Assembly (NCBI GenBank): GCA_021613535.1 | Contig: CP075497.1 | Coordinates: forward strand, 9,820,585-9,884,584 | DNA length: 64,000 nt | Origin: Adineta vaga | Lineage: Eukaryota; Animalia; Rotifera | Direction of reading: 5' to 3' | Shown: in pieces, positions 1 through 58,602 of the stretch | Numbering within the stretch: position 1 is the stretch's first letter | How the letters are laid out: each line of letters starts with the position of its first letter | Made by a program: the position numbers and the translations under genes | The notes under the pieces: generated by a model | Databases searched by the model: none | Told to the model about the DNA's origin: nothing | What the model saw: only the letters and a program-made list of their open reading frames with translations

Positions 1-469
1 ATATGTATATTTATTCAAAAAAAATAAATCATGACGAGTAAATGTTTAAACATATGGGATTATATTTTCTAAAATAACTAACAGACTAACTAGGTAAGTT
101 TTTAAAAATAATGCATTGTTAAATAAAGCTTTGATTTAAATTGATATATTATTAAACTATCAATGGATCTATGATACTTGAAAGATGAGATGTTTGTTCG
201 AAAAAGACGTTATTTATTAATGACTTGTCATTATCATTTACTATCACTAAGAAGTAACCATCTAAAGTCTTTTTTTAGAATAAAGAAAAGAACATATGAT
301 GCAGAAGAATGTATCATATTGCAAATGATCTAATTATTTAAAACCATACAGGCTCTCTCTCTCTTTTTTTTTCAGGACACAAATGGAGACGTGATGATTC
401 GATATCGATCTTAATGATAGTTTGTTTCTGAATTTGAAAAGGAATTTGTTTTTAAAAGAAACGATTAAC

Positions 470-1124
470 TTACGTGGGATCATCACGTAATAATTCATCA
501 TGCACGAGACTTGCAAGAGGAATAATTTTATCATTTTGATGTTCTTTCTTCCATTTAGCTATGGCTTGATGAACATAATTTCTTAATTGGACTTTATCCT
601 GTTCAGTAACACTTTTTTCTGTTGTTGTTATGTCAGGATGCTGTAGTTGTCGTTGTTGTTGTTGTTATTGCTTTTACTGCTGAATCTGCTGTATCACCAT
701 GTGCTTCCGGATTTTTATTGGTGTCATCTTTTGTATGTGGTTGTTGTTGCTCGACTAATTTTTCAAAATTCCATGACGGATCGATCGGAAATAATTTTTC
801 TTTATCCAAGGACTGTGTTTCATCTGCTCGTGCATTGCGTATTAATTGAAAGAGTTCTTCAATACGCCGTTGAGTTATATTTGATGAACGAATAAATATT
901 GTATTCACTGGTGTGGCATGTAAATCATAGATGTTCTGATGGTTAATTGCTGACCAAAATGGAATAACACCGGGCGGAATTGGTACATCACGATGTTCTT
1001 CTTCTTCACGTTCAAGTTCATTAGTTGACCATAGAACTGTATAAAGTGACGTGAGAATGAATATAGTTAATGCAGCCAGAATAAAGACAATGGAGGTACG
1101 TAATCGAAAACGTATTTGCCGCAT
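470..1124 (-). CDS. Hypothetical type II (signal-anchor) membrane protein. The N-terminal 163-aa ORF (1124 down to 633) continues in another frame through a (GTT)n microsatellite, either across a 37-bp mini-intron or a 1-nt indel, to a stop near 470. A gtaagt just before that stop could extend the gene further.
   Basis: ORF 633..1124 (minus) begins MRQIRFRLRTSIVFILAALTIFILTSLY, a single N-terminal TM. The downstream frame encodes TTTEKSVTEQDKVQLRNYVHQAIAKWKKEHQNDKIIPLASLVHDELLRDDPT* without stops. I recognise no family. Confidence 0.35.
640..690. repeat. (GTT)n / (ACA)n trinucleotide microsatellite inside coding sequence, giving a poly-Thr tract. A frame change occurs here.
   Basis: gtcgttgttgttgttgttattgc on the plus strand, encoding ITTTTTTTT on the minus strand. 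Confidence 0.7.
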
Positions 1125-2144
1125 TCATCTATTACAGACGAACAACGATGATCTGGTGTGTTTCTTTTTTTCTTTATGATATAGAGAAAAAATACCATCC
1201 AAATACGTTTCTTTGTGCGTTCTATCTCGCGCGCTTGTTCGTCTTTTTCTTTCTCTTATTGATGGCACAAACAAGAATATAAATGAAATGATTATTCGTT
1301 TAATCGCTTCTTCAAATATGCAATTAACTGTTATATAAAATAAGAAAAAGAACACGATACACGATGTCAGTTTCCGATTTCCGTTGATGGTGCCAAATGC
1401 ATTTTTTTAATGTTCGTATTTTATTTATCTACGAACAAATATAATAGAAAAAAAGACAATAAAAAAGATAAATTTAATAGCAGATGCTGTACACAATTAC
1501 GAATAAACTCATTGACCAAAAAAGATTTTTTTTTCTGTCTCTCTCTCCAATTGAAAATCCATTTCTTATTACTGTCACTCGAGAGTAAATGATCGGTCGA
1601 GGTTCTTCTAGTCAGCTTTCTTTTCTCTAATTCAATGCGATCGAATACTAACTGTTGTCTCTTGTATTTCCGTTCGTTCGTATCTGCTTTGAATAGGAAA
1701 TGATCGAGCTAATACTTAGGAAAATGTGTGAGAGAAGATTGATGTCGTTCTACTCTTTCGATGAGAAAGGAGAAAAAAAGCAAAGAAAAATGGGAGTAAT
1801 GATCTTGTGTCACAGAGAAAAAAGAGAAAAGAAGAAAAAAAAATATATTCAATGTTGTCATTGATCAAAGTAGAAAAGAAGAAAAAAAGACGTACGTCTA
1901 CTCCTGAAAATATTCTATACTGATACAGCCTTTAGTTTTCTGTTTTTTTTATTTTGTATCGAACAAATACGTACATGTATACTTTGGCAGGTAACATATA
2001 AAAGATCAGAACGAAAATTTCTCTATTTATATATACATATATATGTATGTTCGTACAAGAGTTAGTTAAACAAAAGAAAAATTACACAGAAATAAGTAAC
2101 ACGAAAAAGAAAAATAATTAGTTTTGAAGGTATTTATCGTCGAT

Positions 2145-7282
<5,138 letters not shown>

Positions 7283-11528: not shown

Positions 11529-13592
11529 TCAATTTGTCTGTTCACCTCGACAGATCGGACATCGAGTTGATGTCTAAAAAATAAGAATAAAAATCATGTT
11601 TATACATATGTTAGAAATAAAGAAATGAAATAGGCTGGTACCTTAAGCCATGGATCAATGCATTCACTATGGAAGAAGTGTTTGCATCGTAGATGTTTTA
11701 ATTTCTCGCCACCGATATATTCACTCAAACATACGGCACATTTATCATCAGCTTGAATATGTGTACAAGATTTTGTATAGATCATTGTTGGTAATCGTTC
11801 AAGTTCACTATCAGTTAGACCAACGACAGGTGTTTCATCGGGAATCGTTAGATCGAAAAAGTCCTAGATACAAACAGAAGATTATAGAAAAAGAGTTATT
11901 CATAGAAAAAAAAATGAGAAAACTTACACCAAATTGAATACTAAATGCAGCTGGTAATGAAAATATTTCATGACCAGGTGACATCCAGGCATAAGCAATT
12001 AAATCAATTGATGCTGTTGGTGGATGATGATGATGATGAAAATGATTATGAGTATCACTGTATGATGCGGCATGTGCATCAATGACACGACTAGAAAAGT
12101 TTTCAAAGACAGAAGAGAGTTACATTTTTGTTTCATGAAAAGATGGTGAATGGTAATACATACTGAAGTAGATCAGTAAGAAATGAAGGTGAAGGTCGTT
12201 GATGCAAATGAGTAGTCATCGATGTTCGATGAAAGAGTGGACCACGTTGTGGTGGCGTGGATTCGAATGGTATTCCACTTCGATGGTGGTGCTGCTGATG
12301 ATGATGATGAGGAGAAGGAAGATGATTTATTTGTTGTGTATAGGAAGAACGAGGAGGAGGTATTGGTTGACGACGAGGTAAAGCAACAGGTGGTGATTCA
12401 AGTAAAAATTGTTGATGATCAGGAGAATGGTATATATTACGAGGCTGTGCAGATGATGATGACGATGATGATAATGAGGGTTGTTGAATAGGAAGATGAT
12501 GGAGATCGTAATGTGTATTGGTATTATTGATATTATGTGCGTGTTCAATTCGATTTCGTTGCATCGGTTGTGTGCGTTGATCGAATGGTCGAGAAAGAGA
12601 AGGAATATTATCAATGTATGGTGTTCGGGGTATAGGATTTGGTTGTGGTTGTACATATCGATGATTTCTATACAATACAGATAAGAATATAGATTTTTAA
12701 AACAAAATTTTATACGTAAAGAAAAAAAATGAAATACTTACGTGTACGGTTGATAATGATGATGACTAGATGATCGATACTGTTGATTTTGTAGTTGCTG
12801 TTGAGAATGTGATGTATTCTCTTGTGAACGATGATTTGTTCGATCATTTTCATTATTAACTCCTTCATGTCTCGAACGCTTACGTTCATGATGATGATAT
12901 GACTGTGACGACTGAGATGCAGATGTACTAATCGCTGATGAACGTTGCCGTTTCGTATGATTATGATTATTATTGTTATTATGAGATGATCGTTGTGTTA
13001 TTGGATTGTTATTGTCTCGTTCATCGTCAAACCATGGTGGATGTCGTGTAAATGACGCTGCCGATGGACTTTCTAAACGATAATGACGATGATGTGGAGC
13101 TGATGCTGTTGTATTTGCTGCTGCCTAAAAAATAGTGACATTGATTAATTTATTTTAGACGAAATGTTACTAAAGAATAAAAAAAGAGTTTTTTTTACCG
13201 TCACAACATTCAATGGTAATAAAGGTCTAGTTGGTTCTTCTTCATTTGATTGCAAATAATGAATATGACATGATGGTTGAGATTCATCCCTCTGATGTAC
13301 ATGCGGATTCGTAGTTGTTTCACGATTTGATGAAAGTGACGAAGATTCAACTGTTTGACGATGAGGTGGATATTGAAAATAGGAAAAATCATTTTGTGTT
13401 GATAGAGACTGAGATGCAGAAGATGTTGTTGGTGGATGTATACAAGATAATGGATCTGTTAATTGCCAAGATGAACTATCTGATGATGTATCATTCGGTT
13501 GTGTTGTAGGATAAGAAACAAAGTCACACATTTGTAAAGATACACGATGACGAGATGGTATAAATGGACGGTTAGAATATTGGCGAGACATG
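11529..13592 (-). CDS. RING-H2 E3 ubiquitin ligase, RNF38/RNF44-like. The Pro/His/Ser-rich N-terminus and the C-terminal RING-H2 are split by an intron.
   Basis: The RING-H2 reads CAVCLSEYIGGEKLKHLRCKHFFHSECIDPWLK then (intron) TSTRCPICRGEQTN*. The long His/Pro/Ser low-complexity N-terminal exons (MSRQYSNRPFIPSRH...) match the RNF38/44 architecture. Confidence 0.75.
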
Positions 13593-18353: not shown

Positions 18354-20310
18354 TCATTTTTCTCCAGATGAAGAATCACCTATTTGATCACTATTATCAT
18401 AATGACTAATTTGTTGATATTCACTAATAAGATCATTTAAACTTGCTTCTGCTAAACACGAAAAAAGACATTTGTAAATTAATTAAAAAAACATACATAT
18501 GAAAACTAAACTTACCATCAGTAAATTCGATATCATCCATCCTATATATCGAATTCAAAGAAAAAAGTTAAATTAATACATTTTTCTTTGCTATTAATTT
18601 ACCCTTCAGCTGTATACCAATGTATAAATGCTTTCCTTTTATACATAGCACAAAATTGTTGACAAATTTTTTTAAATAATTCTTCAATCGCTGTATTATT
18701 TGCTATAGAAAAAAAAATAACCGGAAATTAGTCTTTGCTATTGACTTTTATTAAGTAGATTATTTTACCAAGAAAAGTACAAGACATTCGGCATCCTCTC
18801 GGTGGAATATCACATACAGCAGTTTTAACATTGTTTGGAATCCATTCAATAAAATATTGAGAATTACGATTTTGTACCTGTAACATTTGTTCATCGATTT
18901 CACGCATTGATAATCGACCACGAAAGACTAGTGCTAATAAAAAACATTCAATATTATTCTATATAAACTGAATATTCGAAATTATGCTAACCAACAGTAA
19001 GATATCGTCCTTGTCTGGGATCTACAGCACACATTACATTTCGAGGATTAAATACTTGATGAACCATGTCCAAAACGGTTGTTGCTCGATAAGATTGACC
19101 ACTTCGTGATGTTAATGGTGCTAAAGATGACATAAAAAAATGTAAACGTGGAAATGGAACCATATTAACAGCGAGTTTTCTTAAATCCGCATTTAGTTGA
19201 CCTAAACATGTCACAAAGAGAGTGAGACGAATGAGGAATAGTGGTATTAGCTGATTTACCAGGAAATCGAAGACAAGTAGTAATACCAGACATAGTGTTA
19301 GCAATCAGATGATTGACTAAAATCAAAATTTTAATATGAATTACGTGATATTTCATAATCCACTACAGACGATCAATCATTGACGGAGTAGGAATTTTAA
19401 GTGACCGAGTACATATTTCATAGAGAGCTTCGTTATCAAAACATATCAACATATCTGTCGATTCAATATGATAATGAGCAGCAAGTAAAGCATTGTATGG
19501 TTCAACGATAGATTCAGATACTTGTGGCGATGGAAAAACACTATAAGCAACAATCATTCCTGAATATAAAAATAATACTACTATCATTTGAATTTGAAAA
19601 TCAACAAAACCATACGATCAGGATACTCTTCACGTAACCGATTTAATACAAGAGAACCAAGTCCAGAACCTGATCCACCACCAATACTTTGCATAATTTG
19701 AAAACCTAGTGAAAAAAAATGATTCTATAGATGTTTAAAATAGTTTGATTATTACCTTGCAAACAATCGGTATTTTCAACTTCTCGACGAACAGTTTCAA
19801 GTAGATAATCAATAGTCTCAGCACCTTCACCATAATATCCTAGAATGAAATATCTTTCACTATAAAATGATATAATATTCTTTGTTAGCAAACCTTTCGC
19901 CCAATTGTTGCCTGCTCCAGCTGTACCAAATACAAAATTATCTGGTCGAAACATTTGACCATAAGATGAAGCACGTACACAATCGATTGGACCCGTCTCA
20001 AGATCACATAAAACTGCTCGAGGAACATATTTACCACCTAAATTAATTATTACTTAGCATTCAGAAGACTTAATAAATGATAATGAAGTTTTTAGTACCT
20101 ATCGCTTCATTAAAGTAGACATTAATCCGTTCTAATTGTATATCAGAATCACCATCATAAATGCCAAGAGGAGAAAGACCATGTTCATTGGCCACAATTT
20201 CCCAAAACTAGAACATGACGAAGATATTTGAGAGTGTCATACCTTCTTATTACTTTTGCTGCGATCTGATTACCACATTGTCCAATGGAGATGTTCACAA
20301 TTTCACGCAT
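18354..20310 (-). CDS. Beta-tubulin, a divergent isotype. Multi-exon, with introns of 46 and 58 bp among others.
   Basis: [19 protein letters not shown] is followed by a 46-bp intron and [10 protein letters not shown]...[13 protein letters not shown]. Further exons give [28 protein letters not shown]...[29 protein letters not shown] then a 58-bp intron and [22 protein letters not shown], then [20 protein letters not shown] and the C-terminus [13 protein letters not shown]...GEK*. Confidence 0.9.
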
Positions 20311-23300
20311 TTTCTAATCAATTTCACTACTGCTTCTTTTTCTATTATTTGAAATGACAATGTCGAAACGTTGAAGCATGTATACATCTATCTAGATACA
20401 CTGGTTTATTGAAGAATCTAGATTAGGATAAATAGAAGAGACAAATAATCCATGTGCTTCTATGAACAATATAGAGAGAAATGTCTGATTGATGTAGTTC
20501 ATACACCCTCAACTAGAAAATAACTGTAATTTTGTTAGATTTTAGATGATGAGCGAGATCTTGAATATAAAAAACAACGCATCACTATCATAAATTAAAT
20601 GGTAAAAGGGCCAGTTGATTTTAACAATTGAACCATTTTGAGAATGTGAATGTTAGCGGCATGATTCTACTCACCCTTTTTCTGTCTATTTATTCATTCT
20701 TAGTTCTTGGATGACGCCATTATATATATATATATATGTAATCTTTACTCGTATACTCAAGAATCAAAGACGATATCTTTCTTTTATTTTAGTTTTTATA
20801 ACTTCAAATATAGGAATATTTTCTCATTTTAAGTTTTATTTAAATATTCTGTAATTCTTTCATGGTATTTCAATTCGTTTTTCATGATTCGACATAATGT
20901 TTTGTTAGAGAGATAGAATAGACGAAAATACATTTCATCTTAGATTAAAAACGTGCATTTTTGTATTTTGTATTGAAAGAATTTATATATCCAATGATAT
21001 CCAAAATTATCGACATATCATTATTTGATGTGTTTCATCTTTTATCAGAAAGGTACTGATAAAAGCTCCAGTGTAACTTATAATCAAATGCATCAAGCTT
21101 GTAATACATAACAAGCCATCACGTATTAATCTTACTCTTGTGATATTATTGTTTCATATTCATACGCATAACAATCAGCTTATGCATCAAGCCGTTCGTT
21201 GATATTTTTTTATCTTTTGTATACATATTTTTTGATAATGATGGTCAGAGAAAACTCATTAAATAAACAAAACTAAAATTATCTTTTTAGGAAAAGATGC
21301 ATTTACCGACAAGGTTGTCCAAAAACAAAACATGTAAAGAAAAACTAATATCAATGAAAGAGACAAGATACATATTAATAAATATAATAATTTAAAGGAT
21401 TATTTTTCAATTATCTAACTCATCGAATAATGTTTGGTAGAGTCAAAACAACGTTACTAGAACAAGAATTTTTATTCGAAGACAGATTACAATATTCGCA
21501 TGTCGATATTCCATAATAGAAAGACAACATAGATATTATGTTTGTCCCATTTTATTCAAAATAAAGCCGATACTAATAGTTAAAATAAAATATGTGCAAT
21601 TTACATAACGCAGCACGTATCTAAATTGTATCCTTGAAAGAAAATGCAAAGTCTAATATCTCACATGATACAATTTTGTCTGAAAAAAATTCCAGCACGT
21701 TTGATACTTCGACTTTGTACAAGGCATTACGATGATATCAGATAAAATTATAAATATTCTATGATTATCATCCTACGCAATACTAGTTTTTCTCACTCGT
21801 GATCAACAGTCTATAAATTGAGTGCGTATATCACAGTTTCTTCATATCAGTTCTCATCGTCGCAAAAAAAACATCCTCTTTTAATAAAGCAATACATTGT
21901 TTGCAACGATCATCCGTATCAGTAAGTAGAATAGCTAAACACTATTTTATCGTTATTCTGAAACTCTGTTATCAACGAATGAATAGACTAGTTAAATTTC
22001 TATAGTAACGAAGGTTGCATTACTTAGTAAATATAAAGTTTCTAGAAAATCAATACTAGAAACTGTGATTTATATCTTCGTGCGAATATTCTGACAATTT
22101 GAGGTCTAACTATAAAAATTCATTTTGCCAATATGCTTTTCCATTTGTTTAATTGTAGGAACGATAATAAAGATATTTTTGACCATACTTCTAATCACAG
22201 TGCGATCGAAACACAATACTAAACTGCGCAAGATTCAGTTTTCAATTATTTCCATCTTTCAAATCAACAATGATACTACTTCAGTCTTTTGGAAATTTGT
22301 TTCCATGCATACACATATCCAAGAACTCGGTGTGGAAACGGTCGATTCTATGGTATCCCTGTGATTAAATGAAACCAGTATTCAGGATCGGAAAATGTTT
22401 GCTTTTTTTCTGGTGTCCTCCAAACAATTATGGATTAGTTCCAAAAATCCAAATTATCGTCCTAGGTGAAAAATACCCTTGGATAAACAAGAGAACTTAT
22501 GGAAAAGGGATGCTTCAACGATAGCAATAGCAGAAATACAATACTAGAATCAAGTACATCCAACAAAAATCACACTTTTAAAATCTTATCAACAATATCT
22601 TGTTTATTCAACAGTGAACAAAATGGAAGTTAATCATGAATAGATGTGCTGCCAACAAAATCCAAAGTACAAAAAGAGTTTTACTGGCATGTATATGAAA
22701 TTATATTGGTTTGATAAGAAAGTACTTTTCTACTATTTACAGTGACTCAGTACGCACAGGATGGTACCTAACGAATCTCATACGAAAATAGAATCAATGT
22801 ACTTGCAAGGTATAGTGTATGGATCTTGATACCAAAAATGTTTAGTTAAAATTTCTTATAGTACAAAATCTCACTCGATCGAATAGCTTCCAGAATCAGA
22901 TCACACCAAAAAACGTCGTTGGAAATCCGACTATCGAGTTGATCGACCAGGAAATAAGTTGAAATCGTAAAAACGAATATCTTCATTAAACAAAAGTATT
23001 ATACAAAGCTTTGTTAATGTCATTAGCATTTCTTTTTGATTTTTGAAGGTTCAAATTTGGGTTTATAACGTAGATAACAAAACAAAATTATACTGTGACA
23101 TTAAACTGCTTAAAATCGACAGAAGCTAACCAATACTCCAGATCAATATATTTATTTTAAAGTTGACTCTTTCTCCACATTACATTTAATTAGTTAGAAT
23201 TTTTATTTTTCCACTGAAATACGTGGCATCAACGAGTCAGACTAAATGTACCGCGATTAATCAGCATGAAATCAGAATAATAGACTGTTTTTGAAGGCAA

Positions 23301-40758: not shown

Positions 40759-42099
40759 TTTTTATTTTTCTTTTTCTTTTTTTCTCGTTTGTGTTTATAT
40801 CATCGAGCAAAGACATGATTATATAATCATAGATAAGAAATGTATTTGTTTTTCGATATACAATGATGATAAATTCTAAAAACACGCGTTTACTTTAGCT
40901 ACCTTTTATAAACATTTAAACGTGATTCATTCATACGAATAACTTTTGTTCCATGTAATACAAAAGATATGTTACGAGAACAACATGAAGAAATTTAATT
41001 ACAAATGCTTATGCAATATATGATAGAAAGAACAAAGAAAAATTGTACAGATATACACGTGCATATCGTTTTTGCTTTTGTTTCATTTTTCATAGTAATG
41101 CTGTCGAATGTAAGAAAGAAATTTGAGAGTGTGGGTGAATTCAAGGTAAAGAGAATACCCAAACATGAACAGCTTGGAACATACACACACATATCCTTAT
41201 TTTTTAAGATGTGGATGAATTTACAATCAAATCTTTACGCTCATTTCCATCAAGTTTCAACGAAAAACGATTTTTAACAAATTTTTTCCGAGAATAAAAT
41301 TTGTTACTTTTACCTACAGTCTTACTCCTTGTCTACAAAAAGATTCAGTGACGTGAGAACATTTTCGTGCGGAAGAAAAGAAAAATAATCTTAATAGCCA
41401 CAAAAAACAAACAAATGCATAAGAAGAGAAGTAATGTTTTGATGAAAAACAACGTCGATGCGATATTTGTTATTTATTTGTGAAACAAATGGAACATATC
41501 AACCGACTAATAGAAATGGCTGAAAGGAGAATTGTTGAGAAAATAAACAGTAGACGAATGCGAGAATCTATTTAATGCTCGTTTCGTTTCTTTAGCATGC
41601 ACAAATAGCGAGTTTTTTTCGTCTAGATGCGAACATAAGTGAAATATATTCGAAACTAGCGCGATCACCATTCAACTTGAAAATATGATCAATCGATGAC
41701 AAATTTTACGGATCATTTAAGAATAATTTCGATCTTCTCTAGATCAATCAAACTACTACAAGACTTGAAGCAAGCACGTAAATATAAACTCTGATCTTTT
41801 TATGAGGAAGCTTTCGAAATAAACTAGCTTAGAATGATGTTTCATGAATTTAGCACGCAGTTTTTCGAAATTTATGCGATCTACCACCATATCGTAGTAT
41901 ATGAAAACGGGATAGCTGTTGTATAATTACTTTTACTAAATGGACTGATTCTTTCATGAATAGTGAAGAATATTTACAGGCTATATTGATAAGGAAAATG
42001 TTTTTTAATAACATAACTAGCGAAAGTATCCGATGGTGGTCCAAAACCTTCCAGACTGAAAACGATAGAGGATGCAGAGAGGTTTGTACTTGAAATTTT

Positions 42100-43248: not shown

Positions 43249-44025
43249 ATGGCTACTGCATCAGATTCAACTACTCATACCAAAAGTCGCTTTCTGGATG
43301 CTAACAAAGAAGACTTGAAAGAACTGATGCCGTTAAAAAGTTTTGATGATGTTCCTCTTCTCCCATTGGGAGAATCTGTTGAGAAGTTGGACAAGTTGCA
43401 TAAGGATCTTAAGCTTATGATAGATGTTGCTCTTAAGAGATCTAAAGATCCAGCTGACAATCTTAATGAAGACCAGTCAGCCGCTATCTGTCTTTATACA
43501 ATGGAAGGTAATTCACCGGGCTGTAATCTTTACTCACTACTGAATGCGACGCTTCGCAATCCAGATCGAACACAACTCGAATCTTGGTATCCATACTTAA
43601 AACTGATACTAACGGCTCTATATACCTTACCATCGATCAGTACGACAGTTTGGCGAGGAGTACGTAAAGATCTATCCCATAGATATAAACGTGGTGAAGA
43701 TATTACGTGGTGGGCATTTAGTTCGTGCACAACTTTGATTGATGTTTTAGAAGATGAAAAGTTCTTGGGCACATCAGGAGAACGTACACTGTTTGCAATT
43801 GAATGTTGTAGTGGAAAAGAGATTAAACGTCATTCCTATTACTCTTTCGAAAAAGAAGTCTTACTCCTTCCAACTACACATTTGAAAGTACTCGGTCAGT
43901 TCAAATGTCAAAATGATATGTATATTATTCATTTACGTGAAATACCAACACAACCACTTCTCATAAGAAACATATTATGTGAACAACCGAGAAAGCCAAC
44001 TCCCTCTCTACTGCCCATAAGGTAA
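43249..44025 (+). CDS. Mono-ADP-ribosyltransferase of the R-S-EXE (ARTC, C3/cholera-toxin-like) clade. Intronless, 258 aa, no signal peptide.
   Basis: The ORF carries the ordered ART motifs. They are AICLYTMEG..NLYSLLNATLR (YxxxN..LR), TVWRGV (catalytic Arg), WAFSSCTT (STS-type motif) and YSFEKEVLLLP (EXE in the EEEVLIP context). An in-frame TAA sits one codon upstream of the ATG. Coding GC is about 40% against roughly 30% locally. Confidence 0.8.
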   Translation: MATASDSTTHTKSRFLDANKEDLKELMPLKSFDDVPLLPLGESVEKLDKLHKDLKLMIDVALKRSKDPADNLNEDQSAAICLYTMEGNSPGCNLYSLLNATLRNPDRTQLESWYPYLKLILTALYTLPSISTTVWRGVRKDLSHRYKRGEDITWWAFSSCTTLIDVLEDEKFLGTSGERTLFAIECCSGKEIKRHSYYSFEKEVLLLPTTHLKVLGQFKCQNDMYIIHLREIPTQPLLIRNILCEQPRKPTPSLLPIR

Positions 44026-46026: not shown

Positions 46027-47017
46027 TGTAACTCATGAACAATGGACGTCAACAGCACTAACAGTGGCTGGAGGTCATGGATACGGACAGCAACTGAATC
46101 AATTTTCTTACTGCTATGGCATGTGTGTTGACAGTGATGGAGCTGTCCTTATCGCTGATTTAAAAAATCATCGTATCGTGGAATGGAAATTTGGTGCAAC
46201 CAGTGGCCAAATAATCGCAGGAGGGCATGGAGAAGGAAGTGAACCGGATCAATTGAATAAACCAACAGATGTCATTTTCGATCACGAAAGAAACAGTATT
46301 CTGATTTGTGACAGGGGAAACCGACGAGTTGTACGCTGGCCCCGCCAAAATGGAAAGAGATATGAAATGGTAATCGAAAATATCGATTGTGGGAATCTAG
46401 CAATGGATAATTATGGTTTTCTCTATGTCACGGACACGCAGAAAGATAAAATAAGGCGATATCAACTGGTAGGAAACAGTTTTCGCTCAGATTATAAAAC
46501 CGTAGCAGGTGGTAATGAAGAAGGTAAAGGTCTCAACCAATTCAATGGACCAGCTTGTTTGTTTGTTGATTGCAAACAAACGGTATACGTTTCAGACAAA
46601 GGAAATAATCGTGTGATGAAATGGGTGAAAGATGCGACGGAAGGAATTGTTGTGGCCGGTGGTGAAGGAAAGGGAAATGGGTTGAGGCAACTGAATAATC
46701 CTCTAGGATTGTTCGTCGATTTAAAAGATAATATCTATATTGTTGATAGTGGAAATCATCGGATTGTATGCTGGAGCAAAAATTCCGACGTTCGTGTAAT
46801 TCTAGGAGGAAATTATAGTAGAAATTTAGAGCACGGTTTGAATGGCCCTACAAGTTTGGCAGTTGATAGTTTTGGTAATCTTTATATCTATGAATCTGAA
46901 AATCATCGCGTTCAACGGTTCGCTGTCAAGAGTGTATCCAATCCACAAGCTAATATTGTACCGAGTAAGGAAAATGTGTGGTTTAAGAAATTTGGAGTTG
47001 ATAGAAGAGTAATATAA
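46027..47017 (+). CDS. NHL-repeat six-bladed beta-propeller protein (paralog 1). This is the main exon; a short 5' exon is inferred but not located.
   Basis: Six NHL repeats carry G..G.G..QLN.P.gl.vD and blade-terminal motifs HRIVEW, RRVVRW, IRRYQL, NRVMKW, HRIVCW and HRVQRF. The reading frame is open upstream to a strong acceptor (ttttttcttcctcgctctag at 46026) with no in-frame ATG, which implies an upstream exon. Confidence 0.75.
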
Positions 47018-48142
47018 AGCAAGTATTGAGACGTTAAGGAATTCTTTTCTGATTCAAAAAGGTCCGATACAATTAAAATTCTATTTTGAATAATTACAAA
47101 TCCATGTTTTAATGGGACGATACATTTTTCCACCTCCATATCTATGGCAAGTATTGCAGTATTAGACGTAGAGTTCTGTTCAACGGACATCATGGATCGC
47201 AGTAAAGCTGCCTCATTAAAACGCGCAATGATCCAACTTTTAAGTGTGTTGTATCGTTGATATAGTAAGCCTAAAATACACGCTCTCTTGAGTAAAAAAA
47301 TAAAAGCAATCCTACTATTACACATGAATTGTATATCTCATCATTGTCAAAAAATAATGTTTCTAACCATAAAACTTAGTAAAACTACCACTGTTGTAGG
47401 CATTATATAGCAATGCATTAAGTAAGTATATCGAGATTTAACAGTTAGTTCAAATACATATATACTCTATCATGGGAATAGAATATGTATCAATTATAAA
47501 CAGTTCATATTAGCAGTATGGCTAGTTTCCATTAGATCGAACTCGATCATATACGTGGTTCGTATTTGATTTTGAAATGAGTATCAATCGAAAATATCTT
47601 ATGAACAGATTTCATTCTTTTCTCCACTAGCCGCCAGTTTTCGTTGTAGAAAGCATCAATTGTAATCGTCGATACTCCAGAGAATAGAATGCTCTTGGTA
47701 AGATGCCACAGTAAAATTGTGTTGGAAATTGCCAAAAATGATGCATTTCTTATCATCTTTCCAGGCACGTTACTTCAGCTATTGTAAAACAGTCTGAAAA
47801 TAACTTTTACATGTAAGCTAAGTTCGAAAAAGTTAATAATATTAGTCATATTAGACTTGAATTAAATTAAATTAAATTATGAGTTACAATTTACGTTAAA
47901 GTACCTAAAATAATCAAATAGTGGTTTTGAGTTTTATATGAAACTCCATTGATTGTTTGTTTGTTTGCAGTTATAGATATTTTCTATTTAAATTCTTTCT
48001 GATCGTATCTACCAACCTAAACCATTATTCGTTAAAATGATATATGAGTAAACATTGAATGATTGTCAAACGCGAAAAAAATTGTTTCTATTCAGCAAAT
48101 AAACATTCATTCTCTATTCGATACGTATTCCTTCTTCTTTGC

Positions 48143-49067
48143 AGATCCAACGCCTAAAGTACCTTCTATTAAATGGAAATCACTTGGAGTCACAGTAGCT
48201 GGAGGACATGGTTCTGGTAGCCAATTGAACCAACTTAACCAATGTTATGGTCTCTTTGTCGACGACGATGGAAATATTCTGATCGCTGATAGTGGTAACC
48301 ATCGAATTGTGGAATGGAAACCTGGTGCAACGAATGGGCAAGTAATAGCTGGTGGAAAAGGAAAAGGAGCCAATATGAATCAGTTGAATTGTCCAACATC
48401 TATTGTTGTCGATAAAAACACAAATAGTCTCCTCATATGTGATTCACATAATCGTCGAATTGTTAGATGGCCACGCCGACAAGGTCAAGTAGGATGTACA
48501 GTTGTAGCTAATATCGATTGTTATGGATTAGCTATGGGCAAAGGAGGTTGTCTGTATGTCACAGACATTGAGAAGAACGAAGTTAGGTGTTATCAGTTGA
48601 AGCAGAACTATTCAGTCCTGACTGTAACTCGCGTGGCAGGTGGAAATGGAAAAGGGGACAATCTTAATCAACTGGATCGTCCTGATTACCTCTTTGTCGA
48701 TCAAGATGATACGATATTTATATCGGATACAGACAATCATCGTGTTATGAAATGGACGAAGGGTAAAAATCAAGGTGTTATTGTTGCTGGAGGTAAAGGC
48801 GCTGGGAATAATCTCGAGCAATTATGTCAACCTACTGGGTTGTTCGTTAATTCATTCGGTACGATATATGTTGCAGACTCTTCAAACCATCGTGTGACAC
48901 GATGGCATGGTAAACAATCAGACTTAATTGCTGACGGAACTATTGATGAAAACGGAAAAAATCACCCGTTCCATCCCGAGGGTTTGGCCGTTGATCGACA
49001 TGATAATTTGTATGTAGCTGATTGGAAAAATCATCGAGTTCTACGGTTCGCAGTTAGATCAGAATAA
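48143..49067 (+). CDS. NHL-repeat six-bladed beta-propeller protein (paralog 2). Main exon; a 5' exon is inferred.
   Basis: This copy is roughly 50% identical to the upstream paralog. It reads AGGHGSGSQLNQLNQCYGLFVDDDGNILIADSGNHRIVEWKPG..., with HRIVEW, RRIVRW, VRCYQL, HRVMKW, HRVTRW and HRVLRF. The acceptor is ttccttcttctttgcag at 48142. Confidence 0.75.
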
Positions 49068-50843: not shown

Positions 50844-53800
50844 TTATTTTTTAATTAATAATCTATTCTTTCGAGATAGTAATTGAACATGAACATTGGA
50901 TTGTGGTTTAGTTGAATTAGTCGTTGTTAAGCGAAGATTAGAATGATCTATTATCTTTGATCGATTTGTATATGGTACACGTTCAACAAAAACTGGATCT
51001 GTGGAGGATTTCAGTGATGGTTGTGATGAAATTTGAGTCAAGTCTAAACTATCTAACGTAATTGTATTGTTAATAATCGATTCTTGAGGTTCGTCAGTTA
51101 TAGATGACTCATTTGAACGTATGAATGAAAATGGTATATGAGTCACTTGAACAGGATTCAGCCGCATATCATTAGGAGATTGTATTGATTGACCTACTTC
51201 GAGAATACTGAGTGAAGTAGATCTTTGTGATTTAGTATCATCTTTAAATATTAATGCTTTCTTTCTTGGATAAATTCGAGTCACTCGAACTTTACTTTTC
51301 CATTCGGCACTACTTTGTCTCACAAATGAACTATCAATTGATTTTTTGTCTTTAACAATTTCATCATCATTTAACATTGATGTCGATCGTATTCGTAGAT
51401 TTGGTAACGAATGTTTTTGATTCATTCTCTTAACCTTTGAAATAAAAACGTGCGGTGGTAATATCGTTTGAGAATGATCACTCAATTTCGGTCCACTATT
51501 GTCACATTCGACATAGATCATACTTAACGATTGATTATTATCAATTGATATATTTGGTGATAATTCATCAACTAAATATATTGAACTGACATTTTCATTT
51601 GACAAAATTAAAGAATAAAGACTTACGATGATATGTTGACTCGTTGGAATAAATACAATGAGGATTGACACAATGATCGATATAAAAATATTCGAATGGT
51701 CCGTCACTCGCATATATCGAAGCAGTTCGACACCATTTACTAAAATAGAATTTCAATAATAAAAAACATCTTTTTCTAATACATTAATTCAAAATTAGAT
51801 ATGACTGACCAACAACAACGCCAGCAAATACAACAAAATATTAAAAGAATAGCAAGCACAATGAAACCAATGATAATTCCAATAATTGGCCATGGAGTAG
51901 ACGTAGCTAATTATTTAAAGAGAAAAATTGATGAAAAAAACAACGAATTTTAACAAACGTTTTTGTGTCGTTGTTGCTGTAGTTCTATTTCAAAAGAAAA
52001 TCGAATTAATTAAAATGAAAAACATTTCAAAATGAAAAAAAAATAAAACTTACGAAGTTGTTGATGTTGATCTGTAAACATAGTTTTGAAATTAAAATAA
52101 ATATTGATTTATTGATTTTTTTTTTAAATTTTATTCTACAAAAGAAATACTAACGTTGTCGTCGTTGATGTTGTTGAAGTAGTGGATGTTGTTGATCTAT
52201 ACATAATATATCATAGAAATTGAGGAAATGATAAAATTTTCTCACTAACGTTGTCGACGATGTTGACGTTGTTGATGTCCTTATAAAACAAAAAAAGAAC
52301 ATATTGGTTTTAAGATTCTTTACTTTAAAATGATGATGAAATAGCAGTGTTTGAGAAAGATCATTATGACTATGAATAATTGAAAACAATGTTGTTTCAT
52401 ATCTTTCATCTGTACTGTACTGTAGAACAAAATTTCAGACAGATGAAGTAGCGCGTATATTTCTTTTCTTATACCTTATTTGAGTCCCACTAGTCATCCT
52501 TTTATAAAATGAGGTAAATAAATATAACTCACGTTGTTGTTGTTGGAATACAAGGTTCACCTGGACAAGAACATATTGAATTTTGTGATACAAAAAATGT
52601 AAAGCAATATTGTGCTGATTGAGCATTTTGACTAAAACAAAAGGTATTCGTCCGTCATCTACTTCTTCCAGTATTTTAAATATAATGAAACCTGTCTATA
52701 GCCATTGAACACATAACTTGATAGCCAAGTTGTAATACTGTTGGTGTCCATGAAAGTGTTTTGTAATATGTGGTTGCATTAAATTGAATAAGACTTCCTT
52801 GAACCATGCCAGGAAATGACAATGTAGCAATATCAAGAATAGTTACAGGTGAACTACAATGATTGACTGCAATCAATAATGATGTAAATGTTTGTCCAAT
52901 TATGACAACTGTACATGATTGTTCAAGTGGAATTCCAACAATTTCAGGTGGAGTTGAACATGATGGAGGTGCAACAACATTCACGAGAAACTGAACTGGA
53001 ACACTACTTAATGATGTCGTGCTTGTTGAATTAATAAAATCTTCGACCTATAGGGAAAAAGAAATATAACGTTATAGTTAAAAATAAGAAAAACAATATG
53101 AACCATTAGTGTAACAGCAAACCAATCACCAATCACTAGACCAGTAATAATAATGGTACAATTAGGAAAAATCATAGTGCCTGATGGTAATGAACCGGGT
53201 GGACATACACCACCACATTCATCCACGCCATTGGATGATGTTGACCATCGACAACGCATTGGATCTCCATCTGCATCAGCTATAGGGACGTGAATTATCG
53301 TTGGAACATTCCGAGGAAGATATATTGGTGACATCATTGTAGCTACAGGAGCATTATTATACAATCCATTATCTGATCGACGTTCTATAATGAAATGTGT
53401 TGAAATAGACCAATCAGCACTTGCAGATGTTGTTAATGGACGCCATGCAGTCTGTTGAAAAGCAGCTGAAAAGTCATCACCTTCTTGTAAATAAACAATA
53501 TCTGAACGTTGTCCTACAACTGTACCGATTGGTGCTGAAATATCGGTACATCGAGGACGGATACTTGGAGGAACATATCCCGCAGAACCAACACCACAAT
53601 TTCTTATACAAATGAGTGTTTGTGGTATTAGATTAGTATAAGCTCCAACTGGAATTAAATTAAGTGCTAAGATATCTGCATTTGTACATGGGATACGAGA
53701 TTGTGTCCATGAATACGTTTGAGTAATTACAATGGCTACAGGTGATCCCGTTGCTGATTCATTTAGCGGACGCCAAGTTATTGTACCACCAAGAAAATGT

Positions 53801-53857
53801 AGTCCATGAACTAAGATTTTCAAGTTACAAATCAAGAGAAAAACACCTGACAACTTC
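50844..53857 (-). CDS. Type-I membrane glycoprotein. Signal peptide, Cys-containing extracellular domain with a thrice-repeated W(R/T)P(L/T) motif, S/T-rich mucin-like stalk built from tandem mini-exons, TM segment, long Ser-rich cytoplasmic tail.
   Basis: A signal peptide MKLSGVFLLICNLKILVHG leads into GTITWRPLNESATGSPVAIV..., ...AAFQQTAWRPLTTS... and ...DADGDPMRCRWSTSSNGVDECGGVCPPGS.... A second exon (52676..52984) contains ...YYKTLSWTPTVLQLGYQVMC. Mini-exons around 51950-52300 encode runs of S/T. The TM segment PWPIIGIIIGFIVLAILLIFCCICWRCCW is near 51810-51900. The final exon 50844..51713 encodes a 289-aa S/N-rich tail. The family is unknown. Confidence 0.5.
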
Positions 53858-54235
53858 ATATTCAAAAAACGCATAAAATAGCAGAAATATAATCAGCTTT
53901 TCTTGACATTTTCTTTTCGATTGAATTCGAGTATTTATTACTCTTCGCGTAGACATCGAATATAGAAATTGAAAATTCATGCTCATCATTATACGAAAAT
54001 GGAAACCAGTAAAATAATCAAATGTAAATTGATAATACCCATGTTCTTTCTCTTTTACGCATATGACTGTCTGTCTTTCATATTCTACATTTTTCTAACA
54101 CTATTATAGCATAAAGAAACCTTGAAAATGAGTTTGACAAAAATTTCGTAAATAGAATACATACACGTACCCTTCAATATAGTGTCAGCATTACATGATG
54201 TGTCAAAAATAATCATTCCCGGGTCAAACTAACCC

Positions 54236-54390
54236 ATCGAATCCGACAAGAATTCATCGGAGGTCATCGGAATCCGACAGGAAGTCGTCGGATGTCGGAA
54301 AGTATCGTAATCTACTGAGATTCTGTCGGACCCTTGAAAATCCGATACTTTCCGACACGGTCCTGCGGAATCCGACCGTCGGATTACTCG
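54236..54390. repeat. Cluster of short direct and inverted TCCGAC/GTCGGA motifs, subterminal-repeat-like.
   Basis: ggaatccgaca(a/g)g occurs 3 times, with inverted tgtcggaaag, tgtcggaccc, tttccgacacgg and cgtcggat (twice) within 155 bp. The region is GC-rich relative to its surroundings. Confidence 0.55.
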
Positions 54391-54750
54391 TTCTGGGTTT
54401 ATGAGCGTTGTTAACTCTAGTAAAGTGATTCGATCTTGAACGAGATATGCTGTGGTATCTTGTATGGTTCTTATTGTGAATAAGTAATCGATGAATAAGA
54501 AACACTTAAATAATCAACGACGTGGCATGAAACAAGGAGCTATTGTGCCTGAATGTTTTTTTCTCTGTTTGTATAGTGAAGCAAATGCTAAATAAACACT
54601 ACAGTGAAATCTCTCTGTGTGAGTACCTCTCGAACAAGGGCACCTCGTTTAAACAGGCACTTGGTCGACCGTCCGATTGATTTTCTATGAGAGCGAATCG
54701 ATAATTGAATTAGGTAAGAAAAGTTAGCACCATATTCGAGTATTTTTTGT

Positions 54751-55080
54751 CAGGATTCGCTTGTAAACTTGTGTTGGTCTTCAAAAAGGTTGTGTTGGAT
54801 GCAGAATTGAATTCTCTATCAAATGATGCCAATTTAAATAGGGCTCACCGTCCAAAAACTGAAGTTTTCGACGAAAAACTGGCGTTTTCACCCATTTTTT
54901 GAACTTAAAACTTTTGTATTTCTTGCCCGGATTCGCTTGAGAACTTGTGCTGTGTCTAAGAATGGACGTGTTGGATTTAGAATATAATTCTCTATCAAAT
55001 TATGTAGTTTTTGACGAGGGTCACCGAGAGAAAAAAATCGTCACACCCACACCCTTTTTCCCAATTCTGTACACTTTGTG
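54751..55080. repeat. Tandem duplication of a 175-bp unit, two copies at about 85% identity.
   Basis: caggattcgcttgtaaacttgtgttggtcttcaaaaaggttgtgttggatgcagaattgaattctctatcaaatgatgcc matches cccggattcgcttgagaacttgtgctgtgtctaagaatggacgtgttggatttagaatataattctctatcaaattatgtag. The second halves gggctcaccgtcc...ttttcgacgaaaaa and gggtcaccgagag...tttttgacgaggg also match. Confidence 0.6.
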
Positions 55081-55083
55081 ACT

Positions 55084-55227
55084 AGTGGCGTATCCAGAGG
55101 GGGGCTAGGGGGGGCTCAGCCCCCCCTACCAAGTTTCGAAACTACTGCAAATTTATATGTTTGCCCCCCCTAGAGGGGGCAAAAAATAGGCTGAGCCCCC
55201 CTAACAATTTTTTCTGGCGACGCCACT
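55084..55227. mobile_element. A 144-bp GC-rich foldback/palindromic element, MITE-like.
   Basis: The arms agtggcgtatccagaggggggctagggggggctcagccccccc and gccccccctagagggggcaaaaaataggctgagcccccctaa...tctggcgacgccact are near-perfect reverse complements. They share near-palindromic G6CTCAGC7 cores and sit in a genome with about 30% GC. Confidence 0.5.
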
Positions 55228-55679
55228 ATTTGTGACCTTCGATACATTGTAAAATTATTCGTCTAGTCATACTGTCATATATCGTATGATGGTGAAATCA
55301 ATATCACAAGAATATCACGATAAAGAAGTATTTAAATGAATAGATTTTTCTTTTTTTTAATTACAAGTGCTTATATAATACATAATAGAAAGAACAGAAA
55401 AAAAAAGTCTCCTGATGCATCCAATCGATCTACAACAAAATACAGGAAAAGAAAGAAAAAGATATGAAGAACAAAGAAAAACTGTACAGATACACATAGA
55501 TCATTTTCGTGTTTGTTAAAAATCTCTTTTATGTTCATTTCATTTTTCAAAATAATATGAACATAACATGATTTTTGACGAACAAAGGCTTGCTAATACG
55601 TGTATGTATTGAGAAACAATATTAAAAAGAGATAAACAAATCGACAATATTCTGCCTATATATGAATCCATCTTCTATT

Positions 55680-58602
55680 TTATCGTAAATATTTATTCAA
55701 GTCAATAAATGCACAATCTGGTAAATTATTCTTGTGCATAAGTTTGTCACATTCATTTAAATATCCAACTAGTACTTCAAGAGCAGGATGTCTTGGCATA
55801 TCATGTGCTTCTACAAAGAAAAACAAAGTGATATGGTTTATATGCGTCAGTAGATATATTAATCTACATACCAAGTATAGCACTATTGACAGCACCAGAA
55901 ACAGTTTCACGTTGTGATGGCTCTAATAGATGAGCAAGTGGAGATGATTTTGGATTTGTATACGCTAATAAACTGAATGCATCCTACCAGAGAAGAAAAT
56001 GTAAAGTAAATCTTATATGATTAGTTTTGATGATTTTACCTGAAGTAATTTATCGTTATGCGGATTATCTCCATGTTCTGTTATGAGTTGTTGTTTAAGT
56101 GCATGTAACTCTCGACCAAACTGAAGTATTCTCACAAGAAGTTGTTCATCATCTTTTTCTATCGATTTTTTCTGTACATCAGATGATGTTAGTGTTGTTG
56201 TCTCCATATCTATCGTCCGAGTCGATTCTGTACATCCATCATGTTCCATTCCATTAAGAGTATCAGTTGATTTTTTTGAACAACCATTACTATTTGCTGT
56301 ACCATCGACAAGTTGATTAGTATTATTATTATTATCATTGTCTACTAATGTATGACCATTAGAGATTTGATCTGTCGTAGATGAAGAAAAAGAAGAAGAA
56401 GACAAAGGATGAGTTACTGTTCCATGATTGCTAAAACCATTTGGTGTATTATTGCTAGGTAGATTATCATCAACATCCATTAGATTAACAACAGTATTCG
56501 CATTCATTGTTGTTGGATGAGAATTTAACTCGGATAATTGACAAGAAATTTGTGATACGTTTGATTCATTATTAGTTTCTGGATGGAAATAACACAGAAA
56601 AGTAATTATAGATCGAAATTATTTGGTCAATTTACCTTGTGATGATTCATTCAAATTACTGGCACTTGTTCGCAGAGATGAAGAATTCATTGCACCATTA
56701 CTATGCTGTTGTGCTCGTTCAGACGTGTATGGACTATTAGAACGGGAACGTGTAGTAGATGTATGCGTTTTGGTCACAGGTGATAATGAAGATCGAATTG
56801 TAGAATGGAAAGAGTTTTTCTTTGAGGAGGAAGGACTGTTCGAACGATTTGTATTAGTTGATAGAAAATGATTAGGACATGAAGAATTCGTTGTTATTGA
56901 CTGAGATGTGGACGAAGATATTGATGTTTTACAAATTTCACTTTCAGTTCCATTAACCATCTCAATAAATTGACGAACTTTGAGTACAAATAAAAGATTT
57001 TTATCATTGAGCAATGTGGGGAAAAGTTCTTTTGTCTTAATGATTGCATCGGTTGTACGACCTTCGAGAATTAAATGTTGAATAACTAGAAAAAAAAGGT
57101 AAACACAAATAAAATTCTTTGGTCAGACTAAGACGATAGATATTTTACGTTGTCGATTTCGCATTGAATTAAGTTCATCAGCATAAACACTTTCGGCATT
57201 TTTATTGAATTGTTCAGCGGTAGCACAATACCCATAATGGACTAGATAAGTTGAAACAATTCGACGTAATTGTGTTTGATGTAAAAGCTCATTTTCTTTT
57301 AATGTACATTCAAATATTGCTCGACGCGTTTTTTCTCGATATTCCTAAATAATTTCAGTCAGTCATATTAGTCTTTTTTTATTTAAACAACGTTTGACTT
57401 ACATCCATATATTTTTCAATATCGAATTTAAATGGATTGAGACCAAAATTTGCTTCAATAGCTTCATGAGGTGTCTGTAAACCAATTGTAGGATAAATTT
57501 CAGTCTATAATTGAATAATCAACAAAAGAAAAAAGAATGTTTCAATTTGAAAAAAATCAATTACCGGTATATCTCGAAATGAAGTACCTTGAGAAAGAAA
57601 AAACAATCATAAATGAATATCGTTGTTGGTATTAAATAAATAAACTTACCAATATTGTAACCATTGCGTGTATAAAAACAAGAATTTTCAAGAAAATTGA
57701 CACAACATCCCACGTAATCACCTGTTGTAAATGTTGGTCCATAAACAATACCTGAGCCTGATGAGCAAAACGAATGACCATCATCACCATGATAACCATA
57801 TGATCCTTTATCCCAGCCTGGTAGACGATTGAGATTAACATCAATTGTTGATAAACCAATACCCATATATCTAATCAAAAGAAGAAGAAGAAGAAACAAT
57901 TACATAACAATCTCAATAGATATTCGATTTATTCAATCGAGTCGTATATAGAAAAAGATAGCAACAATGTTGAAAGTCAAGAATATCGAGAAGAAAATAA
58001 AATATAATGAATCAAAATGGTAGACTCGTTTGAAAGAAAAAAACAAAGATTTATACCTTAAAGATATTTAGAACCTTTTACTAGCAGATAGAATTTCTTT
58101 AGTATAAACAATATTTGTTTATAGAGAAAGACAATTAGTTGGTGGAAATGTGAATTTCAACTTACCCATCACGACCTTTACTTAAAATTTTCACTTCATA
58201 ATAATAAATACCGGTCAACGTTGGAATAGGATAATCAGAACGAACACTAGCTGCATCTTTATGTGATTTGCCAGGTCCTAAAAATATTCTATTTTATGAC
58301 CTTGATGAGATCGCTGAGAATAACTTACCTTTATATGTAACAACAAGATCATTTTGTTGTAAAACTAACGTTTGTACTTTCTCTTTTGCATTCCATTTCA
58401 TTGGTAAATGAATATCATCACTAACATGTGGATAAAGTTGTGCAAGACGTTCATAACCACTTTTATTATTCGTAGTTCTTGATGTTATTGCTGCTGCTGC
58501 TGCAACAGCAGCTGCTGCTGCAACAGCAGCTGCTGTTGTCGTTGATCTTGTTGCCATTCGTGACGGTGGTAATGCTGGTGCTGTTGTCTCATTATCTGTC
58601 AT
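55680..58602 (-). CDS. RANBP9: Ran-binding protein 9/10 (RanBPM) homolog with SPRY, LisH, CTLH and CRA domains. Multi-exon.
   Basis: [12 protein letters not shown]...[26 protein letters not shown] is followed by the SPRY domain [74 protein letters not shown]. The LisH/CTLH region reads [20 protein letters not shown] and [30 protein letters not shown]-terminal CRA motifs are [18 protein letters not shown]...DAFSLLAY...[19 protein letters not shown]. The stop is at 55680-55682. Confidence 0.85.

Follow-up and report, generated by a model that had tools for sequence, protein, structure and literature searches.

The region described here occupies positions 54,236–55,227 of the analyzed stretch of Adineta vaga DNA (64 kb, hereafter the window) and falls within a 1.8-kb intergenic gap between a secreted-protein gene and a RanBPM-like gene. 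Three repeat features were found in it: a foldback cluster of the hexamer TCCGAC, a pair of 176-bp units that carry a dispersed core repeat, and a GC-rich foldback at 55083–55228 with the make-up of a miniature inverted-repeat transposable element (MITE) of the hAT superfamily. An earlier reading made from the letters alone (the sequence-only reading) had described this DNA as non-coding and its repeats as something other than random sequence. Both descriptions held: the gap contains no open reading frame (ORF) of note, no tRNA detectable by ARAGORN and no Rfam family, and all three features are present, each far from chance. The GC content of the window is about 31% throughout.

The foldback and the features that define it are as follows.

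55083–55228, no strand assigned: hAT-like MITE (foldback), 146 bp, 54% GC, single solution in the boundary scan, DNA fold z = −6.7
55083–55098, plus strand: left terminal inverted repeat TAGTGGCGTATCCAGA, whose tip TAGTG fits YARNG (tip comparison)
55213–55228, minus strand: right terminal inverted repeat TAGTGGCGTCGCCAGA in the minus-strand reading, equal to the left repeat at 14/16 positions
55075–55082, plus strand: left copy of the target-site duplication TTTGTGAC, 8 bp, fitting nTnnnnAn (flank comparison)
55229–55236, plus strand: right copy of the target-site duplication TTTGTGAC, 8 bp, an exact match to the left copy
55109–55121, plus strand: subterminal block GGGGGGCTCAGCC of the left arm, with its inverted partner at 55189–55201 (arm comparison)

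A 90 × 90 boundary scan for inverted tips accompanied by any flanking repeat of 3–10 bp returned 55083–55228 as its sole solution. The sequence-only reading had proposed to look for target-site duplications at the boundaries and had itself overlooked the exact 8-bp TTTGTGAC on both sides; an exact 8-bp repeat surrounds an arbitrary 100–199-bp segment of the window with a frequency of 8.4e-5. The hAT superfamily is marked structurally by target-site duplications of 8 bp and by YARNG termini (PMC3014272), and Hermes prefers targets of the form nTnnnnAn (PMC10368747). The foldback combines an exact 8-bp duplication, YARNG tips with short inverted repeats and an nTnnnnAn target. The second base of TTTGTGAC is T and the seventh A, a fit that in one or two sites cannot establish a preference. 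Its longest ORF is 31 aa, and with terminal inverted repeats and a size within the general MITE limit (<600 bp) it has the dimensions of such an element.

The strand of the MITE folds at −44.6 kcal/mol, compared with −22.9 ± 3.2 in shuffled sequences (z = −6.7), and local hairpins of G-runs and C-runs supply much of this stability. The near-perfect palindrome of 144 bp proposed earlier is a strong foldback, 146 bp in size, but not a near-perfect one. A global alignment of the two arms matches in 47 of 84 columns (56%), and the arms have in common only the 16-nt tips (14/16) and the GGGGGGCTCAGCC block.

In these respects the element resembles the non-autonomous hAT elements and MITEs described elsewhere, such as the 32 non-autonomous families of Anolis (PMC3014272) and the Ds1-type elements of maize. 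It is likewise small and non-coding, with 16-nt YARNG tips, an exact 8-bp duplication that fits nTnnnnAn and a subterminal block in both arms. It differs from the described hAT families in the tip TAGTGGCGTNNCCAGR combined with G6-CTCAGC-C6/7 subterminal hairpins, for which no family match was found; a literature search for the tip sequence returned primers only. The ends of Hermes carry subterminal repeats bound by the BED domain (PMC10368747), and these short motifs, placed in both orientations near the ends, offer a model for the GGGGGGCTCAGCC blocks and possibly for the AATCCGAC array of the TCCGAC cluster. Hermes requires about 220 bp of each end, whereas the window MITE measures 146 bp in all, and binding to it is something that we infer.

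Elements with the same tips were recovered from other sequence collections. When 241 million metagenome records were scanned for the two MITE tips together (22 specified bases), three loci were returned. One of them, L003, carries at 2774–2931 an element with tips TAGTGGCGTCGCCAGG and a perfect 8-bp duplication, TCCACAAT, which matches nTnnnnAn at position 7 only; the contig is AT-rich and eukaryotic (30% GC). The second, at L002 1833–1970, is 81% identical to the window MITE over 43 nt, including a GGGCTCAGCCC block related to the subterminal GGGGGGCTCAGCC, and lies on a eukaryotic contig of 27% GC whose ORFs resemble HECT-ligase exons (translations read by eye only). The third match, L004, lies at the end of a contig and is a bacterial palindrome rich in GC; it was set aside as a chance match.

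Searches further afield gave nothing related. A scan of 596 Gb of prokaryotic sequence produced four GC-rich bacterial elements that have only 9-nt tips in common with the MITE, about one chance match being expected, and these were rejected as unrelated. Among the bacterial sequences, an element of about 132 bp is present in three copies (L133 1654–1785, L135 7535–7668 and L136 7428–7559) in the metagenome-assembled genome MFD04580.bin.2.110 (about 61% GC). Its ends read TAGTGGCGTCACC...GGT(G/A)ACGCCACTA, two of the three copies lie inside GCCACG/CGTGGC, and it is unrelated to the rotifer MITE and probably represents a small palindromic repeat of bacteria. Scans of viral contigs with four patterns gave no match for the MITE or the core repeat; the pattern GAATCCGAC...GAATCCGAC returned at least 120 matches, not individually inspected, which were discounted as the kind that so loose a pattern is expected to give by chance. 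A six-frame translation of all three repeat features, run as one 1555-aa query against 5.8 billion proteins, found nothing at E ≤ 10. A tblastx link between the window MITE and L131 7507–7572 proved on inspection to be noise.

On the strength of its own inverted tips, its exact 8-bp duplication and its same-tip relatives, we identify 55083–55228, from sequence comparison, as a non-autonomous hAT-type MITE, for which the tips, the duplication and the relatives are observed and we infer the transposase and the mobility. The sequence-only reading had suggested a MITE, and for the foldback this is what we arrive at. A hAT transposase encoded elsewhere would bind the 16-nt inverted tips and probably also the subterminal GGGGGGCTCAGCC blocks, excise the element and integrate it at a target cut with an 8-bp stagger; when that target was repaired, the TTTGTGAC duplication would be left. 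The partner transposase gene, if in the same genome, would have TAGTGGCGT...ACGCCACTA on its flanks.

The two genes that bound the gap are both on the minus strand.

53104–53859, minus strand: first coding exon of the secreted-protein gene, the downstream neighbour and a member of a large bdelloid family (homology)
55680–55910, minus strand: ORF with the last coding exon of the SPRY/CTLH RanBPM-like gene, the upstream neighbour, as its 3' part, the gene's stop being at 55680–55682 (ORF list)

The secreted-protein ORF extends over 53008–53874, and its homology begins at the ATG at 53859. Its database relatives with names number 169, all of them bdelloid (Rotaria, Adineta, Didymodactylos), and the top match is 85% identical. 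Since the best matches are proteins of these genera, the window is recognizable as bdelloid rotifer DNA from this gene.

Nearest to the secreted-protein gene lies the TCCGAC cluster.

54231–54398, no strand assigned: AATCCGAC/TCCGAC foldback cluster, 168 bp, 51% GC, with 8 TCCGAC and 3 TCCGAT (motif count, arm alignment)
54235–54296, plus strand: 31-bp tandem duplication within the cluster, 2.0 copies, 84% matches (tandem-repeat search)
54293–54357, no strand assigned: perfect 15-nt inverted repeat TGTCGGAAAGTATCG / CGATACTTTCCGACA with a 35-nt loop, arms at 54293–54307 and 54343–54357

Both strands of the window together contain 13 copies of TCCGAC, compared with 11.2 in shuffled sequences. 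Eight of these stand in both orientations within 142 bp (54242–54383), which agrees with the earlier claim of at least eight copies, and the other five are scattered at the chance rate. The clustered copies are not independent, being parts of the tandem duplication, the 15-nt inverted repeat and a 17-nt palindrome, AATCCGAC-C-GTCGGATT, at 54369–54385. The arms of the cluster (54267–54307 and 54343–54376) are short and imperfect, with an alignment score of 33 against 14.5 ± 2.2 in shuffles, and the DNA fold of the cluster has z = −4.7. Compared with its own flanks, the cluster showed similarity never above that of shuffled sequences. The sequence CGACCGTCCGATT at 54666–54678 agrees at 12/13 positions with the cluster's CGACCGTCGGATT, which lies 293 bp to its left, and is not significant against shuffles.

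Dense motifs in both orientations upstream of the ATG at 53859 might also be read as an array of transcription-factor sites that controls the secreted-protein gene 370–540 bp downstream, possibly co-opted from a mobile element. We regard this as decidedly unlikely. No comparable cluster was found near the secreted-protein homologues in 10 related loci, where the maximum is 2 copies per 160 bp, a comparison that is weak in that the relatives have 62–85% protein identity and their orthology is uncertain. The sole exception is an unrelated MITE in locus L137, about 10 kb from that locus's gene. The chance rate of the five remaining copies in the window also speaks against a regulatory array, as does the origin of the clustered copies in a few larger internal duplications and not as independent sites.

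The L137 element bears on the cluster in another way. This hAT-like MITE at 20285–20395 has tips TAGGGATGCACCAGT and subterminal repeats CAGTCGGACTGG that contain the cluster's hexamer (as GTCGGAC), so bdelloid elements can indeed contain motif arrays of this type, and short subterminal repeats are bound by hAT transposases (PMC10368747). It cannot be aligned with the window cluster, similarity between the two again never exceeding that of shuffles. More broadly, L137 19983–20395 holds one or more hAT-like MITEs with tips TAGGGATGCACCAGT / ACTGGTGCATACCTA, the short copy being flanked by ACGGGAGG / ACAGGAGG (7/8 match).

By analogy with such elements, the TCCGAC cluster is most likely a decayed remnant of another foldback or MITE-like element, and its short motifs may once have served as transposase-binding subterminal repeats. 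The earlier suggestion of transposon subterminal repeats is thus plausible, with the L137 analogue in its favour, but unproven, as no ends, duplication or second copy were found. In a lesser version of the segment-insertion reading considered below, which seems improbable to us, the AATCCGAC foldback could represent an undescribed bdelloid DNA-transposon family. Like the Drosophila foldback elements FB and Tetris (PMC4079207), the cluster appears to have arms of short tandem or inverted subrepeats, and it lies beside tandem units; Tetris is presented as a foldback transposon that supplied satellite units (PMC4079207). Unlike the elements described there, the TCCGAC cluster has no defined ends or duplication, measures only 168 bp, exists as a single copy and shows no sequence similarity to them. 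The best candidate for a duplication was unconvincing: a direct repeat of 10 nt, CGGAATCCGA, that reproduces the motif.

Between the cluster and the MITE lies the pair of 176-bp units with its core repeat.

54707–54843, plus strand: core repeat copy A, unclassified interspersed, about 125–137 bp, with nhmmer and BLAST matches to L001 12384–12520 and L131 8406–8542
54900–55019, plus strand: core repeat copy B, without about the first 17 core positions (repeat comparison, profile)

There are exactly two units (2.0), at about 54740–54915 and 54916–55075. Positions 54740–54850 recur 176 bp further on, at 54916–55026, with 73% identity, and BLAST aligns the two at 80% over 90 bp. The 175-bp tandem duplication of the sequence-only reading stands as two adjacent units, but these are diverged (73–80%), and Tandem Repeats Finder did not report the pair even at a minimum score of 30. 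A satellite would form a head-to-tail array of several units, and no such array is present.

Further copies of the core of the unit were found in L001 and L131, at unrelated sites. BLASTN matched window 54706–54815 to L001 12412–12521 (75% identity, E = 1e-12) at a non-syntenic position. L001 contains the closest available relative of the secreted-protein gene (80% nucleotide identity), and there the repeat lies 3.8 kb downstream of the gene of this family, whereas in the window it lies upstream. The two window copies and L001, with L131 left out, gave a profile that recovered a fourth copy at L131 8419–8526 (E = 7e-10), in a different sample. Some 1.3 kb from the core copy in L131, at about 7010–7200, there is an AT-rich foldback with a long near-perfect inverted repeat. 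The core as a promoter module of the secreted-protein family was considered and rejected, since it is upstream in only 2 of the 11 family genes examined, those of the window and of L131.

The core is, judging by these matches, an unclassified short interspersed repeat common to bdelloid-like genomes. It is short (125–137 bp), non-coding and dispersed at non-syntenic sites, as are the unclassified and SINE-like (short interspersed nuclear element-like) repeats of bdelloids (PMC7943196). No conserved RNA structure (consensus fold −4.6 kcal/mol), no tRNA by ARAGORN and no Rfam match were found in it. A SINE would have a head derived from tRNA, 5S or 7SL RNA with pol III boxes, and the core has none. 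With no tRNA-like head, Rfam match, conserved fold or recognizable ends, it cannot be placed among SINEs, MITEs or Helitron fragments. The beginning of the core is missing from copy B, and A and B remain similar beyond the limits of the core; a local 176-bp tandem duplication that followed a single insertion is therefore the most likely origin of the pair.

Local duplication might be extended to the TCCGAC foldback as well, so that replication slippage or palindrome-generating repair made both it and the 176-bp pair on the spot, leaving the hAT MITE as the only transposon. The uniqueness of the cluster in all the DNA that could be searched, its construction from nested local duplications and the resemblance of copy B to a local tandem duplicate are consistent with such an origin. 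The core of the 176-bp unit is nevertheless found elsewhere, in L001 and L131, and AT-rich DNA nearby could hardly have given rise to a cluster of 51% GC when the genome has about 31%. We consider this origin unlikely.

The sequence-only reading had taken the combination for a non-autonomous transposon or MITE. This is right for the foldback alone; as a single composite element the region fails, its pieces having no shared bounds and existing separately elsewhere. In a composite element spanning 54236–55227, one subterminal region would be supplied by the TCCGAC array, the internal repeats by the 175-bp units and the other end by the foldback, and the three features do stand within 1 kb and are all richer in GC than their surroundings. 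No inverted ends with a duplication of 2–10 bp were found around the whole region in a boundary scan, and the foldback has complete tips and an 8-bp duplication of its own. Furthermore, the core repeat is present without the other two pieces in L001 and L131, and the MITE type without the other two in L002 and L003. These results make a composite element extremely improbable. The lack of outer inverted repeats or duplication and the occurrence of each piece alone elsewhere argue that the three pieces are independent.

Several results count against the picture of an intergenic gap that collected separate mobile pieces. For the MITE, the window and about 0.2 Mb of DNA from related bdelloid loci yielded no second copy. 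An autonomous hAT element ending in the MITE tips was not found, no transposase is encoded in the window, and the L002 element has no target-site duplication. For the TCCGAC cluster, hAT-style and general boundary scans revealed no tips with a duplication, and no second copy was found in the window or in the same 0.2 Mb. An FB-like element would have defined ends, a target-site duplication and further copies; none of these was found for the cluster, nor, with no tips, duplication or relatives, any evidence of mobility. The core repeat has no third copy in the window beyond A and B, and its four copies in total, unclassified, come from searchable loci that were all chosen around one gene family, so that they are not an even-handed sample of its spread in the genome.

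With these points taken into account, we still think it probable that the region is intergenic bdelloid DNA with three unrelated repeat pieces, one of them a hAT-type MITE, and not one element. A hAT-type MITE beside other repeat fragments in an intergenic gap is expected, as ordinary accumulation of mobile elements. About 2.8% of the DNA in bdelloid genomes belongs to class II elements, and MITEs are a poorly annotated minor fraction (PMC7943196); RepeatMasker lacks a MITE module (PMC7943196).

The position of the repeats was then compared with gene order in related loci. Locus L140 is colinear with the window on both sides: window 63943–55680 corresponds to L140 4521–12812, through the RanBPM-like gene, and after about 0.75 kb of intergenic DNA (12812–13569) window 40766–34952 corresponds to L140 13569–20017. 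The L140 homology ends at about 55577 and resumes only at window 40766. The intervening part of the window, about 41.1–55.35 kb, has no counterpart in L140; it comprises five ORFs or genes, with the three repeats at its right-hand end. This segment of about 14.3 kb includes an ART-like ORF, two NHL-like ORFs and the secreted-protein gene. Long single-exon ORFs lie in it at 43249–44025, 46064–47017 and 48063–49067, the last two encoding paralogous repeat proteins that look NHL-repeat-like (translations read by eye only).

The segment is bracketed by a direct repeat.

55356–55556, plus strand: right copy of the direct repeat around the ~14.3-kb segment, the left copy being at 40994–41099 (BLAST, L140 comparison)

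Within it, 40994–41042 matches 55356–55404 (86%, E = 3e-10) and 41022–41057 matches 55461–55496 (89%, E = 1e-7). The right copy lies within the 3' flank of the RanBPM-like gene. MAFFT suggests a single counterpart of the bracketing repeat in L140, for which BLAST support is weak. The segment may have arrived as a large insertion that duplicated a long target, or the relative may have lost it by a deletion between the repeats.

L001 has only two genes in common with the window, and its homology ends at the ATG at 53859. The L140 homology ends at about 55577 and that of L001 at 53859, so that the repeat cluster occupies the interval between these two breaks in synteny. Such a position agrees with debris that gathered at a rearrangement junction, without demonstrating that the repeats caused the rearrangement; the end of a lineage-specific segment of this kind would be a place tolerant of debris. 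The recombination hotspot of the sequence-only reading gains from this the location of the region between two break points, as circumstantial evidence only.

Two more specific scenarios connect the repeats with the segment. In one, the three repeats would be terminal debris of a gene-carrying segment of about 14.3 kb inserted at once in the 3' flank of the RanBPM-like gene, with a target duplication of 100–200 bp. This seems improbable to us; if true, it would be a large insertion by break repair, as invoked for gene gain in desiccation-tolerant bdelloids, possibly aided by hairpins. In the other, the repeats would be functional parts of the junction, hairpin-forming and repeated DNA having triggered a break whose repair gave rise to the 14.3-kb block or shifted it. 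The occupation of the gap between the L140 and L001 break points and the direct repeats around the block (40994–41057 and 55356–55496) are compatible with such a role. The junction association, however, comes from one locus, mobile elements accumulate at such junctions anyway, no inverted repeats were found between the block ends, and the intact duplication of the MITE shows insertion by ordinary transposition. A causal role is accordingly very hard to credit, and we continue to see the repeats as debris.

Two further observations concern the surrounding sequence and a related locus. Window 12001–13000 has a strong GC skew (+0.46) and an elevated GC content of 0.37 over an ORF region rich in proline, histidine and glutamine. 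In L138, an 860-aa ORF at 261–2843 (minus strand) without a Pfam match adjoins an ORF at 3022–3600 with a weak HTH_animal match; the former may encode a transposon protein.

Together, these results account for the GC-rich hairpins in the gap, with no evidence of new structure or function. Their importance lies mostly in annotation: the MITE, with its TAGTGGCGTNNCCAGR tips and G/C-run subterminal hairpins, and the core repeat could enter bdelloid repeat libraries, whose coverage of MITEs is poor. The position of the repeats, at the end of a segment absent from L140, may also be mildly useful for the study of gene-neighbourhood remodelling in bdelloids.

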